In this document: in pieces, positions 58,033-64,000 of the stretch | Numbering within the stretch: the stretch's first letter is position 1 | How the letters are laid out: every line of letters begins with the position of its first letter | Source of the DNA: Bacteroidota bacterium | GTDB lineage: Bacteria > Bacteroidota > Bacteroidia > M30B66 | Direction of reading: 5' to 3' | NCBI GenBank assembly: GCA_027483445.1 | Contig: JAIXUS010000008.1 | Coordinates: forward strand, 60,487 to 124,486 | Length of the DNA: 64,000 bases | The notes under the pieces: model-generated | What the model was told of the DNA's origin: nothing | The model's database searches: none | Seen by the model: only the letters and a program-made list of their open reading frames with translations | Translations under genes and position numbers: made by a program

Positions 58033-60978
58033 CTATAATAGGTCGTAAATGGCTTCCTGAATTTCGACGCGGGTTGCCAATGTATTTATTTTTTTATTTT
58101 CTGCGTCGGGATAAACACGGTTACTGAGGAATACATATATAAGTTTTTTATCAGGATCGGCCCAGGCGATGGTGCCTGTAAAGCCCGTGTGGCCGAAACT
58201 TAAGGAAGAAACGCACTTGCAGGTTGGTCCTGTTTTTCCGTAATTCATTTCGGGTTTATCAAAGCCTAAACCACGCCGATTATCGTTTTCACAAAATTGA
58301 CAACGGGTAAATTCTTTAATTACATTTTCACTTAAATAACGGTCGCCACCGTAGGTGCCATAATTTAAAATCATCTGCATTAATGCGGCTAAATCTGTGG
58401 CATTAGAGAATAATCCTGCATGACCAGCAACTCCGCCCATCATTGCAGCACCTTGATCGTGCACATAGCCATGCACCAATTGTTTCCGGAATAATTTATC
58501 ATTTTCGGTTGGAACAATTTCTTCTTGATTGAAGCGACGAAGCGGATTGTAGGTAATTCTTGATAATCCCATTTTTCGATAAAATGTTTGAGCTGTATAT
58601 TCATCAAGTCCCATATTTTCGCGCTTTTCAATAATATGCTTGAAGAAATAATACCCTAAATCGGAATATTTATATTCAGGATTTTTACGATTACTAAGCT
58701 CACAAGCCGCAATACGCATCAAAATGGTGTCGGGGTAATCGAATCGCATAAACATTTTATCGGCCACCTGATGAGGAAAACTGTCAGAAGCCGCATTTCG
58801 ATAATATTTATTTCTGCGTTCTGCGGTATTGATTGTGCTATTGTAAAATGGAATCCATGCGGGTAATCCGGCCTGATGAGCAAGCACATCGCGCAACCTT
58901 AATTGCCCTTTGTTAGTGACTTTCAGCGCTGGAATATATTCTCCAATGGTTTTATCTACGTCAATAAATCCTTCATCAACCTGACGCATAATTGATATGG
59001 TTGAAGCAGCCACTTTAGTTATAGACGCAATGTCGTACAAGTCTGTAATTTCCACAGGTCGAACCGGTGCGTATGTATGGAATCCAAAAGCCTTGTTGTA
59101 AAAGACTTTTCCATCTTTTGCAATGAGCAATTGGCAGCCGGGCGTTGCTTTTGCATTGATGGCTACTTTGGCCAACGAATCAACCTTCGAGAGCGAACGA
59201 CTCGCAATGCCTAATTCTTCGGGCTGGGTGAATTTCAGCCGAATCACTTCGCTGAGCTCAAGCCCTTGTCCGGCCTTGTATTTACCTACAGAAACCGGCA
59301 TCATTCCATTGGCTTTTATACCGCCAAAAATAAGCTGGGCCGACAAATCCTGACTGTTTTTATTGTCTTCAAAAGCTTCAATTAATCCATGAGGTTTATG
59401 CGTCAGTTTTTCGAGCGAATAGGGATTGGCCAACACATTTACAATCACTTTCGATTGTTTTAGAACCCCACCAATAAAGGTATTCACGGCTGCATTTACG
59501 CCGGCCGATTTATTCATGGTGTTTTTGGGATTATGCACACTAATAATCACCAAATTATAAGGTTTAAGCTTTTGCAGCAATTCAGCCTGGCGTGCAGAAA
59601 GTTCATCTTTATCGACCGCAAAACCTTTCACCTGCGTGTAAAGGTTCAAGGTTTTTAGAAATACATTTCCTTCTTTTCCGTCGATCGCCACCGAAGCAAT
59701 ACGCAGCGTGTCGAGTCGCTTGAGCGGCATAAGATTTCGGTCGTTTTCCAGCACGCAAAGTGAGGCTTCTGTGAGCTTTCTCCTGAGCATTTCACTTTCG
59801 GCCGTGTTCAGATCTTCATGCAAATTCTTTATTTCTACTTTCCTCGATTTATGGGCTCCTAACCAATGTTTTGCATGCAGAATTTTCCGGCAACGGCGGT
59901 CTATTTCTTCCTGTGTAATTTCTCCGGACTGTATTGCTTTTTTAATTTCTGCCATTCCAGCCGTTACACTTTGAGTGAACAGCAATACATCGTTTCCGGC
60001 CAGCAAAGCGCGTACATCAGCCTTTCCGGGCCCATTAGAAGAGGCTACACCTTGCATATTCAGCGCATCGGTAAAAATGAGACCTTTGAAACCCATTTCC
60101 TTTTGTAAAAGCTCTGTAATGATGGCTTTTGAAAGAGTTGATGGCTTTGCAGCACTGCTGTCGAGGGCCGGAACAAAAAGGTGTGCAACCATCATTGAGC
60201 CCAAGCCACGTTCAATGAGATTACGGAAAGGCCATAGCTCAACAGAATCGAGTCGGGCGCGATTGTGGGCAATCACAGGTAAGGCTTTATGAGAGTCGGT
60301 ATCTGTGTCGCCGTGTCCAGGAAAATGTTTCGCATTGGCCAGCACATTGCCATCTTGCAAGCCCTGCATGTATGCCAGCGCCTTATTGAGTACGTTCTGC
60401 TTAAGTTCGCCAAATGAACGCATGTTAATAACAGGGTTGGCAGCATTGTTATTCACATCGGCTACCGGGGCAAAGTTCACGTGAATGCCCAATCGACGGC
60501 ATTGGCGCGCAATTTCTCGTCCCATTTCGTACACCAGCTTTTCGTCGCGGATTGCACCAAGGGTCATCTGTTTAGGAAACGACTGGGTTGAATCAAGTCG
60601 CATGGAAAGGCCCCATTCACCATCGATGGAAATCATTAGCGGTACCTTGGCCAATTTCTGGTATTTGTTGGTGAGGATGGCTTCACGAACAGGTCCGCCC
60701 TGCATAAAAATTAATCCACCGATTCCCTTTTTCTCAACCAGATTGCTGATTTCCTGCTCATGAGCTTTGTCTTTGTTGGAGTACGCAGCGACCATGAAAA
60801 GTTGGGCAATTCGCTCATCGGGACTTAGGTTTTTCATCACCGAATCAACCCATGCCTGTCCGCTGTTGAGATATGGAGGATCGGTTTGGTTTGCCGATTT
60901 TTGCGGCAAATTGAGGTTCGACATGAGCCAAAGTCCTGATCCAGCAAGCATTACGGTAAGAAAGAGGGTTTTCTTCAT
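58033..60978 (-). CDS. Glycoside hydrolase family 3 (NagZ-like beta-N-acetylglucosaminidase) fused to a serine beta-lactamase/PBP-like domain
   Basis: The N-terminal 'KHFPGHGDTDTDSH' and 'FTDALNM' are GH3 motifs. The C-terminal 'ASITKV' SxxK and 'HTGFTG' (KTG-like) motifs mark a beta-lactamase-class domain. The ATG is verified at 60978-60976. Confidence 0.8.
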   Translation of the reverse strand: MKKTLFLTVMLAGSGLWLMSNLNLPQKSANQTDPPYLNSGQAWVDSVMKNLSPDERIAQLFMVAAYSNKDKAHEQEISNLVEKKGIGGLIFMQGGPVREAILTNKYQKLAKVPLMISIDGEWGLSMRLDSTQSFPKQMTLGAIRDEKLVYEMGREIARQCRRLGIHVNFAPVADVNNNAANPVINMRSFGELKQNVLNKALAYMQGLQDGNVLANAKHFPGHGDTDTDSHKALPVIAHNRARLDSVELWPFRNLIERGLGSMMVAHLFVPALDSSAAKPSTLSKAIITELLQKEMGFKGLIFTDALNMQGVASSNGPGKADVRALLAGNDVLLFTQSVTAGMAEIKKAIQSGEITQEEIDRRCRKILHAKHWLGAHKSRKVEIKNLHEDLNTAESEMLRRKLTEASLCVLENDRNLMPLKRLDTLRIASVAIDGKEGNVFLKTLNLYTQVKGFAVDKDELSARQAELLQKLKPYNLVIISVHNPKNTMNKSAGVNAAVNTFIGGVLKQSKVIVNVLANPYSLEKLTHKPHGLIEAFEDNKNSQDLSAQLIFGGIKANGMMPVSVGKYKAGQGLELSEVIRLKFTQPEELGIASRSLSKVDSLAKVAINAKATPGCQLLIAKDGKVFYNKAFGFHTYAPVRPVEITDLYDIASITKVAASTISIMRQVDEGFIDVDKTIGEYIPALKVTNKGQLRLRDVLAHQAGLPAWIPFYNSTINTAERRNKYYRNAASDSFPHQVADKMFMRFDYPDTILMRIAACELSNRKNPEYKYSDLGYYFFKHIIEKRENMGLDEYTAQTFYRKMGLSRITYNPLRRFNQEEIVPTENDKLFRKQLVHGYVHDQGAAMMGGVAGHAGLFSNATDLAALMQMILNYGTYGGDRYLSENVIKEFTRCQFCENDNRRGLGFDKPEMNYGKTGPTCKCVSSLSFGHTGFTGTIAWADPDKKLIYVFLSNRVYPDAENKKINTLATRVEIQEAIYDLL

Positions 60979-61032
60979 AGCACGGTTCAAATTCTTTACA
61001 AAATAACGCTGCAAACAAGGAGGGCATTTCCG

Positions 61033-61470
61033 ATGTTTGAAGGAGTAATCAACAATAACAGGTTAACGAAAATGGAGGCGAATCGGATATCCGAATCCAG
61101 TCAGGACAACTGGGTGTTTTTCGATGGTGGATGTGCCATGTGTAGCGGTTCTGTTCGTTTCGTGAAAAAGCATTTGGCCAGCCCTGTTTTTCGTTTTGAG
61201 GCCTTGGATTCCAACTTTACGCGGGAGTTTTTAGATGCTCATCCTTTTCCGGGAACCGTCCCGGATGCGATTTTAGTCTATTCCAACGGATCTTGGTCTG
61301 AAGGTCCGGAGGCCTTATTTGTTATTGTACGCAAGATGCGTTGGTATTTTCGATGGCTTGGCGTGTTTCGATTCACTCCTCGGTTTATGCAAACGGGCCT
61401 TTATCGATTTATTGCACGCAACCGCATTCGTTGGTTTGGAAAATCGAATATAAGTTGTGCTCATGAGTAA
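61033..61470 (+). CDS. Thiol-disulfide oxidoreductase, DCC family (DUF393)
   Basis: It has the 'FFDGGCAMCSG' DCC motif. Confidence 0.75.
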   Translation: MFEGVINNNRLTKMEANRISESSQDNWVFFDGGCAMCSGSVRFVKKHLASPVFRFEALDSNFTREFLDAHPFPGTVPDAILVYSNGSWSEGPEALFVIVRKMRWYFRWLGVFRFTPRFMQTGLYRFIARNRIRWFGKSNISCAHE

Positions 61471-62044
61471 GGATGCGCTTTTTGCTTTGCGCCATTATTT
61501 AGGTTTTTTTGGTCGGCTTGAAGAAGAAGAGTGGAATGCGCTCGTAGAGCAGCTTCAACCGTTTTCATACCCGGCAAATACGCATTTGGTTCGCCAGGGC
61601 GACGAAACGGTGCGGCTTTATTTTTTGCTTCAGGGTTATGCCCGGCATTATTTTTTAGATGCAGAGGGCGAGGAAATCAGCAATTGGTTTAATATTCCGG
61701 GCAGCATGGCCACCGACTATGAGGCCTACACTACCGGAAATGTGTGCACGTACTCGATTGTATCGCTCACTGAGGTACAGGGCTTTTGGATCGACCGCCA
61801 AACGCTGCTTTCGTTGTATGATCGGTATAAAAACTGGGAGCATATTGGTCGGATGATGAATCAGATGTATCTCATCTCGCTGATGCGTCGAAACCAGCGG
61901 CTTTACAGCCAAACAGCGGCCGAGCGCTATGCTCATTTTTTAAAAACGCAGCCCGGAATCTTTCAGGTAGCCAAGCTGAAACATATTGCCTCCTATCTTG
62001 GAATTACCCTTGAAACGCTGAGTCGATTGCGGGCAAAACGTTGA
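61457..62044 (+). CDS. Crp/Fnr-family transcriptional regulator (cNMP-binding domain plus C-terminal HTH)
   Basis: It has a beta-roll region and a C-terminal 'IASYLGITLETLSRLR' HTH. Confidence 0.8.
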   Translation: MLMSKDALFALRHYLGFFGRLEEEEWNALVEQLQPFSYPANTHLVRQGDETVRLYFLLQGYARHYFLDAEGEEISNWFNIPGSMATDYEAYTTGNVCTYSIVSLTEVQGFWIDRQTLLSLYDRYKNWEHIGRMMNQMYLISLMRRNQRLYSQTAAERYAHFLKTQPGIFQVAKLKHIASYLGITLETLSRLRAKR

Positions 62045-62111
62045 TTTTTTGATGTACATCAAATTAGTATGTGGGGATGACCTCACACTTTTGCAGAAAA
62101 CTCTCCGGTAA

Positions 62112-64000
62112 ATGCAAAAGATTGGTTTTCTATTCTCCACGTTGACGTTATTATTGAGTTCAGCCTGTTTGCCTCCTTCCAATCCTTATCCGGTGGAGCC
62201 TCCCGATACCATCGTGCAAAGAGCCGAAGCCTGGTCGGATTCGCTGGAAGATTACATCGAAGCCTGGACCCAAGGGCACGTTTCCGACAGTATTCCCGAT
62301 GAACTCATCCCGCAGGGCATAGAAGACAGCCGTAATTTTTATTTGAAAGACCCCGATCTGGTTACGCCCGGAGAAACCTGGGCCATCCGCAAGGCAAAAC
62401 CCATTAATAAAGATTCGCTGTATGCCGGCATTCCCGACCCGCGTGTAACCTATCTCTTTCTCGGAACGGCCCTCGCTCCATTTGGCAGCAAGCTGGTGAT
62501 TGAAGGGGAATTTCCGCATTGCCGCTTTTTTTCGATTCAGGCTTCGCCGCCTCTCAATGGCAAGGAGTATTACTCGCAGCGTCAATTTGGTCCGGCCGAA
62601 GTCTCGATTGTAGATGCCGACATTGAGCCCTTGCCGGGGCATACCAATCCGTTCAGGCCCGGGGCCGACCGAACTGCGCAGAACCGCTCGTATCGGGTCA
62701 CTTTTGATCTCACAACGGGCGATCCGGTAGCACTAAACGACACGGCATTTCAACATCCATATCGGTATCACACCAACAACCGAAAGGCGGCCATGCTGGT
62801 TTACCAAGGGCCTTTGGGGTATCAGACCATCGCCGGAACACCGCTGCCCGTGCAGGGCGACTGGAATTTGGGCTGTATATGGATTCGTTATTACGCCCCC
62901 GATGATCAGGTGGATGCCTTTGGTGGCGTGCCTTTACCGAAGGTGTATTATGAGTTGCCCAATGGCGAGAAGTATTTCATCGGTTCTAATTTTAGTAAGC
63001 TCCAACAGCGGGCTGATGCCACCATTGCCAATCGGGTTACGGCTCCCACACCCGGTGGAAGCGAAGGGCCTTCGGTGGGTTGGTTCAAAAGCTGGAGCAT
63101 AACGCGTTCTATTCTCAACGGTGTTTGTCAGAGTAACAACTGGAGTCGAATCGACAGCGGTGCACGGGTTCGCGATATTGATTTAGGATGGACGGGTAGG
63201 GGTGAGTTTCAGCCGCCGCCGGCCAACATCGAGCCACATGCTACCACCAACAACTACGCAACCTATTTAGGGAGAAACCTCACTGTGCCTGAGGGCAAGG
63301 TGGCCGTGCTTACCGGACGGTTACCGACATTTCCATCCACCCGAAACGGGGAACCGGAAATGGGTACCGGGCAAGTCAGGTATTGGAGCATTTGCGGCAT
63401 TGACCAGGATCCGCTTTCGCCGATGCCGGCCACTACGATTCATGCCATTAGCGACGATGAAGTGGTTACCGATGCGTTGAACAATTACGTAATTGTGTAT
63501 TCCCGCCCCGACGACCGTCCTTCAAATGCCCTGGCTTCTCGAGGCGTTAGCTGGGTGGATTGGGGAACGCAATCGACCATGGGCATTTTGATGCGATGGG
63601 TGAATATTGCCCCCGATTGGACCTTCCCGTTTGCGCCTCAGGAGCACAATTTAAGCTTTAGCATTAGTGATTGGGCGGCAACCTTGTACGATAGCACGCT
63701 GATAGGGGTGAACTGGAGACGTGGGTTTATGCAATGCTACCTGCCCAGGGTGCACCTGATGGACAAGGAAGAGTTCGAAGCCCTCACGATGGAACCAATC
63801 ACGGCTGAAGATGTTCCGGTTTGGGTGGACCCGGTTTACACGGCTGTTGGTCCCGCCGAGTCGCATTTGGCATCGGTCGTAGCCAGTTCGGTAGCCGATA
63901 CCGCAGCAGCTTCACAGCCTGAAAACGTGATTGACCGAAACATTACCACCTTTTGGGCGAGTGCCTTTGGCCAACAGGATGTGACCTTTACGGTAGATTT
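62112..64000 (+). CDS. Hypothetical lipoprotein, 3' partial (open to the window end); absent from the supplied ORF track
   Basis: Manual translation from the ATG at 62112 gives an uninterrupted frame of at least 629 codons. The N-terminal 'MQKIGFLFSTLTLLLSSAC' is a signal peptide with a lipobox-like Cys. Confidence 0.6.
   Translation, partial: MQKIGFLFSTLTLLLSSACLPPSNPYPVEPPDTIVQRAEAWSDSLEDYIEAWTQGHVSDSIPDELIPQGIEDSRNFYLKDPDLVTPGETWAIRKAKPINKDSLYAGIPDPRVTYLFLGTALAPFGSKLVIEGEFPHCRFFSIQASPPLNGKEYYSQRQFGPAEVSIVDADIEPLPGHTNPFRPGADRTAQNRSYRVTFDLTTGDPVALNDTAFQHPYRYHTNNRKAAMLVYQGPLGYQTIAGTPLPVQGDWNLGCIWIRYYAPDDQVDAFGGVPLPKVYYELPNGEKYFIGSNFSKLQQRADATIANRVTAPTPGGSEGPSVGWFKSWSITRSILNGVCQSNNWSRIDSGARVRDIDLGWTGRGEFQPPPANIEPHATTNNYATYLGRNLTVPEGKVAVLTGRLPTFPSTRNGEPEMGTGQVRYWSICGIDQDPLSPMPATTIHAISDDEVVTDALNNYVIVYSRPDDRPSNALASRGVSWVDWGTQSTMGILMRWVNIAPDWTFPFAPQEHNLSFSISDWAATLYDSTLIGVNWRRGFMQCYLPRVHLMDKEEFEALTMEPITAEDVPVWVDPVYTAVGPAESHLASVVASSVADTAAASQPENVIDRNITTFWASAFGQQDVTFTVD

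Follow-up and report, generated by a model that had tools for sequence, protein, structure and literature searches.

An open reading frame truncated at a window edge in a Bacteroidota bacterium encodes a predicted secreted multidomain protein with a putative Crp/Fnr-activated promoter

The open reading frame (ORF) studied here starts with the ATG at position 62112 of a 64,000-nt stretch of DNA from a Bacteroidota bacterium (contig JAIXUS010000008.1, positions 60,487-124,486, forward strand; hereafter the window) and runs on the plus strand to the last base of that stretch. Our best overall explanation, to which we assign a probability of roughly 70%, is that the ORF belongs to a secreted multidomain protein whose promoter is activated by a Crp/Fnr-type regulator. 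According to this model, the ORF would be the first 78% (629 of about 807 codons) of a gene for a protein at the envelope or surface of a freshwater Bacteroidota bacterium, and this target gene would have its own promoter in the 67-bp gap behind the gene for the Crp/Fnr regulator. The regulator would sense a small-molecule effector through its cyclic nucleotide monophosphate (cNMP)-binding-type domain, and the effector-bound form would occupy a palindromic box in the gap and activate the target promoter. This box lies about 42 bp before the predicted transcription start, which would correspond to class II activator-dependent geometry with the box replacing the upstream promoter element. The large core domain of the product would be its functional, probably catalytic, part and would act outside the cell on a glycan, an esterified polymer or a glycoconjugate, with a discoidin module serving as the targeting lectin for the core. 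The predicted module of regulator, operator and gene is the most solid new result of the analysis; the target itself is an ordinary conserved hypothetical secreted protein with a well-defined regulatory handle.

The open frame belongs to a genuine gene that the window edge truncates

Re-reading of the plus strand bore out the first-pass annotation, which had described the frame as open to the end of the window: the 629 codons from the ATG to base 64000 contained no stop, whereas the remaining five frames of 62112-64000 contained between 12 and 29 stops. An in-frame TAA (62109-62111) abuts the ATG on its 5′ side, so that the start is unambiguous and no alternative start exists upstream. Codon usage was scored as log-odds after training on two genes of the window, rpoC and the GH3/beta-lactamase gene; the target frame scored +0.05, the best of the six and the sole positive value (-0.22 to -0.55 for the other five). 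A search of 5.8 billion proteins with the 629-aa product returned 439 homologs at a threshold of E ≤ 1e-3. The best of these, P0001, has 807 aa, is 98% identical and covers 100% of the query, and its 47.6-kb contig has the same gene order as the window, namely rpoB, rpoC, DUF3467, the GH3/beta-lactamase gene on the opposite strand, a DCC1-like gene, the cNMP-binding regulator and the target. Downstream of the target, that contig continues with a transketolase-like gene and then an H+-pyrophosphatase gene. The 439 homologs and the 98%-identical full-length match put the reality of the ORF beyond doubt, and we conclude from these sequence comparisons that it is a real gene truncated by the window edge.

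Were the frame instead open by chance, or a pseudogene remnant, one of the two ORFs inside it (Table 1) might be the true gene. Nothing speaks for this idea except the missing stop within the window; the stop counts, the codon scores and the 439 homologs, the best of them conserved over the full length at 98% identity, refute it, and we give it practically no weight. Both internal ORFs, which had been called shadows of the long frame, do lie in frames with poor coding scores. The absence of the target from the ORF track had also been explained correctly, as the program that made the track skips ORFs running off an end and the target ORF is among them; ORF tracks restricted to stop-terminated frames drop real genes at window edges. 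The description of the product as rich in Pro, Trp and Gly held only mildly (P 8.9%, G 7.2%, W 2.9%).

The target and the upstream Crp/Fnr regulator form a conserved module with a predicted operator

Both genes that had been named as upstream neighbours of the ORF, encoding a DCC oxidoreductase and a Crp/Fnr regulator, were recognised by Pfam (PF04134 and PF00027, respectively). To place them in context, 868 flanking ORFs were called in 80 loci and clustered. The Crp-type regulator, of about 190 aa, was the only widely recurrent neighbour of the target. In about 20 loci it directly precedes the target on the same strand, separated from it by 63-96 bp in most, and the targets linked to it range from 94% down to 43% identity to that of the window, the remaining flanking genes being unrelated. 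These comparisons indicate that regulator and target are a conserved two-gene module. A larger conserved operon or polysaccharide utilization locus (PUL) was rejected, as contexts otherwise differ among the homologs.

The gap between the two genes contains a perfect palindrome, within which lies a perfect FNR/CRP-type TTGAT-N4-ATCAA box (Table 1), the sole one in the 64-kb window. Among 19 loci with the regulator upstream, 10 had a perfect (10/10) box, an outcome seen in 0.1% of shuffles; a further three had a 9/10 match and four an 8/10 match, two of the latter being symmetric TTGAC-N4-GTCAA. Most of these loci have the box centre 50-66 bp ahead of the start codon. Loci without the regulator were mostly at background, and just 1 of 55 had a perfect box. 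Five loci carried a 9/10 or 10/10 box with no same-strand regulator directly upstream, and one of them (L067) has a divergent regulator just upstream.

The sigma-A -7 element of Bacteroidota promoters, TAnnTTTG, spans -12 to -5 (PMC9723704). A candidate for this element follows the box in the window (Table 1). In 13 of the 21 boxed loci, the G of the TTTG lies 36-39.5 nt from the box centre, compared with 2.9% of shuffles. Given the near-fixed distance of this conserved TTTG and the span of the -7 element, transcription in the window would start close to position 62098, with a predicted box centre at -42.5; for the modal spacing of related loci, the predicted centre is -41.5. Class II CRP/FNR activator sites are centred at -41.5. 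A scan with the sigma-70 consensus, which is uninformative for Bacteroidota promoters, showed no terminator between regulator and target.

E. coli FNR reads TTGAT through an E--SR motif in its recognition helix. All 25 linked regulators, which have diverged to 27% identity, carry a matching E-T-x-S-R helix, with E-T-L-S-R in the window protein. The target promoter thus resembles class II CRP/FNR promoters in its perfect TTGAT-N4-ATCAA box, its predicted centre near -41.5 and a regulator with a cNMP-binding domain and an E--SR helix. It differs from the E. coli FNR paradigm in being of the Bacteroidota sigma-A type with a TAnnTTTG -7 element. An FNR-like Cys cluster is absent from the linked regulators, that of the window having a single Cys and no Fe-S cluster motif, and an oxygen-sensing FNR was ruled out on this ground. 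Taken together, these patterns make it likely that the target is regulated by the adjacent Crp/Fnr protein. Together with its perfect operator, the regulator-gene pair would then offer an experimental entry to the system, as an inducing compound should point to the substrate.

Loci that lack the Crp regulator often have another dedicated regulator upstream of the target, such as a LytTR response regulator with a histidine kinase (five loci) or, in some flavobacteria, an extracytoplasmic function (ECF) sigma factor with a 229-aa lipoprotein. These alternative dedicated regulators point to a tightly induced function. A predicted lipoprotein of 222-236 aa (cluster c7, no Pfam match) was observed beside the target in loci L047, L049, L053, L057 and L063, three of which also have the Crp regulator or an ECF sigma factor.

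The product is a predicted type IX secretion cargo with a lipoprotein-type signal peptide

The full protein is predicted to consist of a lipoprotein-type signal peptide, a core of about 570 aa, a discoidin module and a type IX secretion system (T9SS) type A sorting domain. Judged by P0001, it runs 178 residues past the window end. The discoidin match in P0001 was strong, with PF00754 at residues 589-696 (E 5e-16; 59.5 bits versus a cutoff of 28.2) and PF22633 at residues 605-692 (56.9 bits). Pfam gave no discoidin match on the 629-aa window fragment, which holds just 41 residues of the module. The sorting domain lies wholly beyond the window. TIGR04183 matched P0001 at residues 735-805 (31.7 bits versus a cutoff of 23) and was above cutoff in three other family members as well, and Por_Secre_tail (PF18962) matched P0001 weakly at residues 735-804 (24.1 bits, below the cutoff of 27) and was found in most family members of about 810 aa. 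With a discoidin module and a sorting domain in the further 178 residues, the protein is a predicted T9SS cargo and not just a lipoprotein. We hold these statements on gene, architecture and secretion with high confidence.

The N-terminus, MQKIGFLFSTLTLLLSSAC, conforms, through K3 and Cys19, to the lipobox rule of PROSITE (PS51257), in agreement with the earlier description of a probable lipoprotein. The +1 residue is Cys in 98 of the 111 family members whose N-terminus is intact. The preceding residue is A, S or G in 96 of these 98, Leu dominates at -3, and LPPxxPYP is conserved directly after the Cys. In the remaining 13, Ala is followed by Gln at this position (A-Q-[LF]-P). A Gln N-terminus marks substrates of signal peptidase I (SPI) in Bacteroidota, the 'Q-rule' (PMC5837995), and these members have apparently switched from a lipoprotein signal to an SPI N-terminus of this kind. 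Conservation of Cys in 98 members, with Gln in 13, makes lipidation likely and the Cys dispensable for the fold; Cys19 is thus most likely a real lipidation site. The Gln variants (P0056, P0058, P0063-P0065, P0070-P0076 and P0079) all keep the discoidin module, and most keep a sorting-domain match. Core-only Bacteroidota versions (570-590 aa), which have neither discoidin module nor sorting domain, retain the lipobox, and proteobacterial versions bear twin-arginine translocation (TAT) signals. Export is predicted for every member examined.

Like T9SS type A cargo, the protein starts with a Sec signal at its N-terminus, continues with a functional domain and a predicted lectin-type module, and would end in a type A sorting domain. 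T9SS-linked multimodular glycoside hydrolases (PMC5831590) have this same build. It differs from such cargo in two respects. Its functional domain falls in no known enzyme family, and 88% of the target family have a signal of the signal peptidase II (SPII) type in place of the SPI type usual for T9SS cargo. As T9SS cargo are described as SPI substrates (PMC5837995), a lipobox combined with a sorting domain is an unusual pairing; among the pipelines that predict T9SS substrates, at least one accepts SPII signals (bioRxiv 10.64898/2026.09.25.754504). Double targeting, by an N-terminal lipid and a C-terminal T9SS signal, is a secondary reading of these sequences. If true, it would provide a natural test case for how the T9SS handles lipidated cargo, and the natural Cys-to-Gln variants form a comparison set for N-terminal processing versus type IX secretion.

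The core domain defines an uncurated superfamily with a VPA0735-like fold

The first-pass annotation had seen no obvious motif in the product, and the database searches agreed. The core (residues 19-585) belongs to no Pfam, NCBIfam or PHROG family. Pfam gave no match in the core region at E ≤ 1 for the window protein and its close homologs and none at E ≤ 0.01 for 19 further superfamily members, and the scans, which covered 29 further members in all, returned accessory domains only. Searches of PDB sequences by phmmer and by profile gave nothing at E ≤ 10 except a single chance ribosomal match. When a profile of the actinobacterial homologs (A3), the most distant members, was searched against the 5.8 billion proteins, all of the matches listed were hypothetical proteins, and the two with Pfam annotation had accessory domains only. 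Nor did the core match, by sequence or by fold, a catalytic domain from any described glycoside hydrolase, polysaccharide lyase or carbohydrate esterase family.

In PDB-based fold searches, a confident AlphaFold model of the core matched only 6ANS, 2P3Y and 3U07, which are structural-genomics proteins of unknown function, with 9-14% identity. The window core has about 200 residues more than 6ANS, and only 257 residues were aligned. The model of a minimal actinobacterial homolog, P0241 (predicted local distance difference test score 83.9), matched 6ANS, 2P3Y and 3U07 more strongly than the window core did, with scores of 21.9, 15.5 and 14.9, respectively, and aligned with 282 of the 368 residues of 6ANS. 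The stronger match of this minimal homolog to the same three structures indicates that the shared superfamily core has the 6ANS-type fold, of which the Bacteroidota version is, according to the models, an expanded form.

SCOP lists this fold as 'VPA0735-like', represented by two DUF families (PMC2744874). The core resembles the VPA0735-like proteins 6ANS (Burkholderia cenocepacia), 2P3Y/3VB9 (Vibrio parahaemolyticus VPA0735) and 3U07 (VPA0106) in three dimensions, but it has no sequence link to them by Pfam, NCBIfam or phmmer and hmmsearch against the PDB, and it is, unlike them, predicted to be fused to discoidin and T9SS modules. Its predicted membership of this fold group is thus by structure only and not by profile. 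We take the PDB entries of the group to be DUF1254/DUF1214 proteins (PF06863/PF06742). The core had no detectable Pfam match to either family, and a literature search found no functional study of DUF1214, DUF1254, VPA0735, 2P3Y, 3U07 or 6ANS.

Fusions and conserved residues suggest a role in extracellular polymer turnover

Depending on the lineage, the core carries discoidin, ricin-B beta-trefoil, FG-GAP, Fn3, Ig-like, beta-propeller and T9SS sorting domains, mostly lectin or scaffold kinds of module that are normally joined to extracellular catalytic domains. In an intermediate branch of the superfamily, five representatives (P0197, P0205, P0206, P0208 and P0221) have the core fused to an alpha/beta-hydrolase esterase of the polyhydroxybutyrate (PHB)-depolymerase/CE1, phospholipase/carboxylesterase or type-B carboxylesterase type. 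An actinobacterial locus (L085, 5364-8227) has the two as neighbours, the gene for a 408-aa minimal homolog overlapping an upstream gene for a 546-aa esterase (PF00756 / Abhydrolase_1) by 4 bp. These fusions with lectin modules and esterases point to a glycan or esterified-polymer substrate.

Conservation was scored on 59 sequences spanning the superfamily and is given in mature numbering (add 18 for the precursor). Thirty-nine positions, 11 of them charged, were at least 95% identical across lineages that share only about 40% identity. Conserved residues include R120, E145, D150, D152, N161, R169, R174, R241, D246, T392, R405, D430, N454, R477 and N516, together with the aromatics Y96, W239, W306 and W463. 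The invariant Arg and Asp residues and the aromatics would suit a site specific for a ligand that is polar and possibly anionic.

Genes for SusC/SusD or other PUL components were absent beside the target in the window and in the Pfam-annotated loci, and they formed no recurrent cluster among the 80 clustered loci. The target resembles SusE/SusF-type lipoproteins in its N-terminal lipobox, beta-sandwich-rich body and predicted lectin-type module. It differs from them in this absence of nearby SusC/SusD and PUL genes, in having no sequence or top structural similarity to them, and in its predicted T9SS sorting domain.

We infer that the core is the functional unit of the protein and more probably an enzyme than a pure binding module; the odds that it is an enzyme acting on glycans or esterified polymers fall a little short of even. 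A fuller proposal is distinctly tentative. The core would be the catalytic domain of an undescribed extracellular enzyme family acting on glycans, esterified polymers or glycoconjugates, and the Crp/Fnr cassette would sense the substrate or a breakdown product. The recurrent fusions with lectin modules and esterases mark the core as a candidate for an activity, so far undescribed, in the turnover of extracellular polymers, and the enzyme reading, if true, would supply the first function for the VPA0735-like fold (6ANS, 2P3Y, 3U07), which has had none since 2007. A large uncurated superfamily, esterase and lectin fusions and a clean regulatory cassette together give the system more than the usual interest.

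Alternative explanations

A conventional lipoprotein, facing the periplasm or in the outer membrane, would have its location set by the Cys19 anchor, with the sorting domain irrelevant or absent. Such a protein would suit the lipobox in 98 of 111 members and its retention by the short core-only forms without a sorting domain, as well as the preference of the T9SS for SPI substrates (PMC5837995) and the position of the sorting domain outside the window. However, the 98%-identical homolog with the same gene order has TIGR04183 above cutoff, PF18962 recurs in most members of about 810 aa, and the 13 members that combine an SPI-type Gln N-terminus with a sorting domain indicate that the lipid anchor is dispensable. 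Published T9SS-substrate prediction also accepts SPII signals (bioRxiv 10.64898/2026.09.25.754504). We regard a plain lipoprotein as improbable, and prefer T9SS export. A somewhat better case, though still an unlikely one, exists against the operator. The palindrome may serve another Crp/Fnr paralog; the five loci that keep the box show that its regulator need not lie co-oriented immediately upstream. Or it may mark the end of the regulator transcript, the target being co-transcribed with the DCC1-like and regulator genes across a gap of just 67 bp in which the scan saw no terminator-like site. The association of box and regulator is above chance, however (perfect box in 10 of 19 loci with the regulator and 1 of 55 without), the box keeps a fixed distance to the -7-like element, and the matching E--SR helix is present in all 25 adjacent regulators. 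Nor is the palindrome G+C-rich or a terminator stem. We thus favour an operator bound by the adjacent regulator.

The nature of the core is where an opposing view carries most weight. The core may be non-catalytic, a binding or adhesion module of a surface lectin or adhesin displayed via the T9SS, in which case the core of the esterase fusions would be a large carbohydrate- or polymer-binding module. We think this somewhat unlikely. The core of about 570 aa stands alone as the whole mature protein in many phyla, and itself bears binding modules (discoidin, ricin-B) of the kind normally appended to catalytic domains. Some 39 positions, 11 of them charged, stay at 95% identity or more across lineages only about 40% identical, and in the loci examined the core never adjoins SusC/SusD genes. 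These points argue for an enzymatic core.

Features of the region, neighbouring genes and spread of the superfamily

Table 1. Predicted features at the 3′ end of the window
Feature	Coordinates	Strand	Remarks
DCC1-like thiol-disulfide oxidoreductase gene	61033..61470	+	PF04134, E 5e-19
Crp/Fnr-family regulator gene, predicted activator of the target	61457..62044	+	PF00027 cNMP_binding, E 4e-10
16-bp perfect palindrome TTTGATGTACATCAAA, predicted operator	62048..62063	.	in the 67-bp regulator-target gap
FNR/CRP-type box TTGAT-N4-ATCAA within the palindrome	62049-62062		
Candidate sigma-A -7 element CACTTTTG	62086..62093	+	consensus TAnnTTTG
Partial coding sequence, codons 1-629 of ~807	62112..64000	+	stop-free; cut at window end
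Signal peptide, residues 1-18	62112..62165	+	PS51257 rule
Lipobox L-S-S-A-C	62154-62168	+	family [ASG]-C then LPPxxPYP
Cys19 codon, predicted lipidated N-terminal residue of the mature protein	62166..62168	+	
Conserved core domain, residues 19-585	62166..63866	+	uncurated superfamily, 6ANS/VPA0735-like fold
F5/8 type C (discoidin) module, first 41 residues	63876..63998	+	alignment to P0001; cut by window end
Shadow ORF, 160 aa, not a gene	62160..62642	-	minus frames score negative; plus frame conserved in 439 homologs
Shadow ORF, 66 aa, other plus frame, not a gene	62902..63102	+	poor coding score

The DCC1-like gene runs 14 nt into the start of the regulator gene, an overlap suggestive of co-transcription of the two. 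The linkage of these two genes was found only in the nearest relatives, namely locus L004 (the sole fetched locus with the DCC1-like gene by tblastn) and the P0001 contig, while the other loci with the regulator-target pair lack it, and a functional link of the target to the DCC1-like gene was ruled out for that reason. Farther upstream, positions 58033-61014 on the minus strand encode a 993-aa protein with GH3 (NagZ-like) and beta-lactamase-family domains, as assigned by Pfam on the syntenic contig. It looks like a fusion of the cell-wall recycling type, unrelated to the target.

No other 1.8-kb stretch of the window is as rich in GC as the ORF (62112-64000; 53.6% versus a mean of 45.5%; z about 3), with 58% G+C at third codon positions in the target gene. 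The regulator gene (48%) and the DCC1-like gene (45%) are not raised in GC. High GC together with patchy synteny could reflect horizontal acquisition, or merely a composition rich in Pro, Gly, Ala and Arg.

The nearest named genomes, at 94% identity, are freshwater 'Bacteroidetes bacterium' metagenome-assembled genomes (MAGs), and homologs at about 70% identity come from Saprospiraceae and Chitinophagales MAGs. A core-only profile searched against 1.84 billion cluster representatives found, at the level of 50% identity, 845 clusters at E ≤ 1e-3, 502 at E ≤ 1e-10 and 129 at E ≤ 1e-30. Genome loci place the core in many Bacteroidota orders and in Nostocales cyanobacteria, as well as in Verrucomicrobiota, Armatimonadota, Lysobacterales, Hyphomonadaceae and Myxococcota. 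Actinobacteria such as Thermoleophilaceae, Solirubrobacteraceae, Nocardioides and Marmoricola have a shortened form of 400-560 aa, all copies of which are annotated as hypothetical. In many phyla the core makes up the whole mature protein, with no other module attached. The superfamily thus spans Bacteroidota, Cyanobacteria, Actinobacteria, Proteobacteria, Verrucomicrobiota and other phyla and has no Pfam or NCBIfam model.

Some genomes have paralog pairs. On the Cytophagaceae contig JALONH010000006.1 (L018 and L061), an 807-aa protein with discoidin and T9SS domains and a 597-aa core-only protein are encoded about 12 kb apart, and Hymenobacter terrenus (L057 and L066) has two core-only copies. 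In five Nostocales loci (L042, L043, L045, L059 and L072), the genes flanking the core-only homologs encode an FtsX-type permease and a membrane-fusion protein of the HlyD type, a set reminiscent of a DevBC-type ABC exporter; since all five loci come from one order, this linkage may reflect inherited synteny and not function. In alignment A3 of the actinobacterial minimal homologs, an invariant C-x-W (C33) occurs just past the signal peptide, outside a lipobox context, and this Cys perhaps forms a disulfide.

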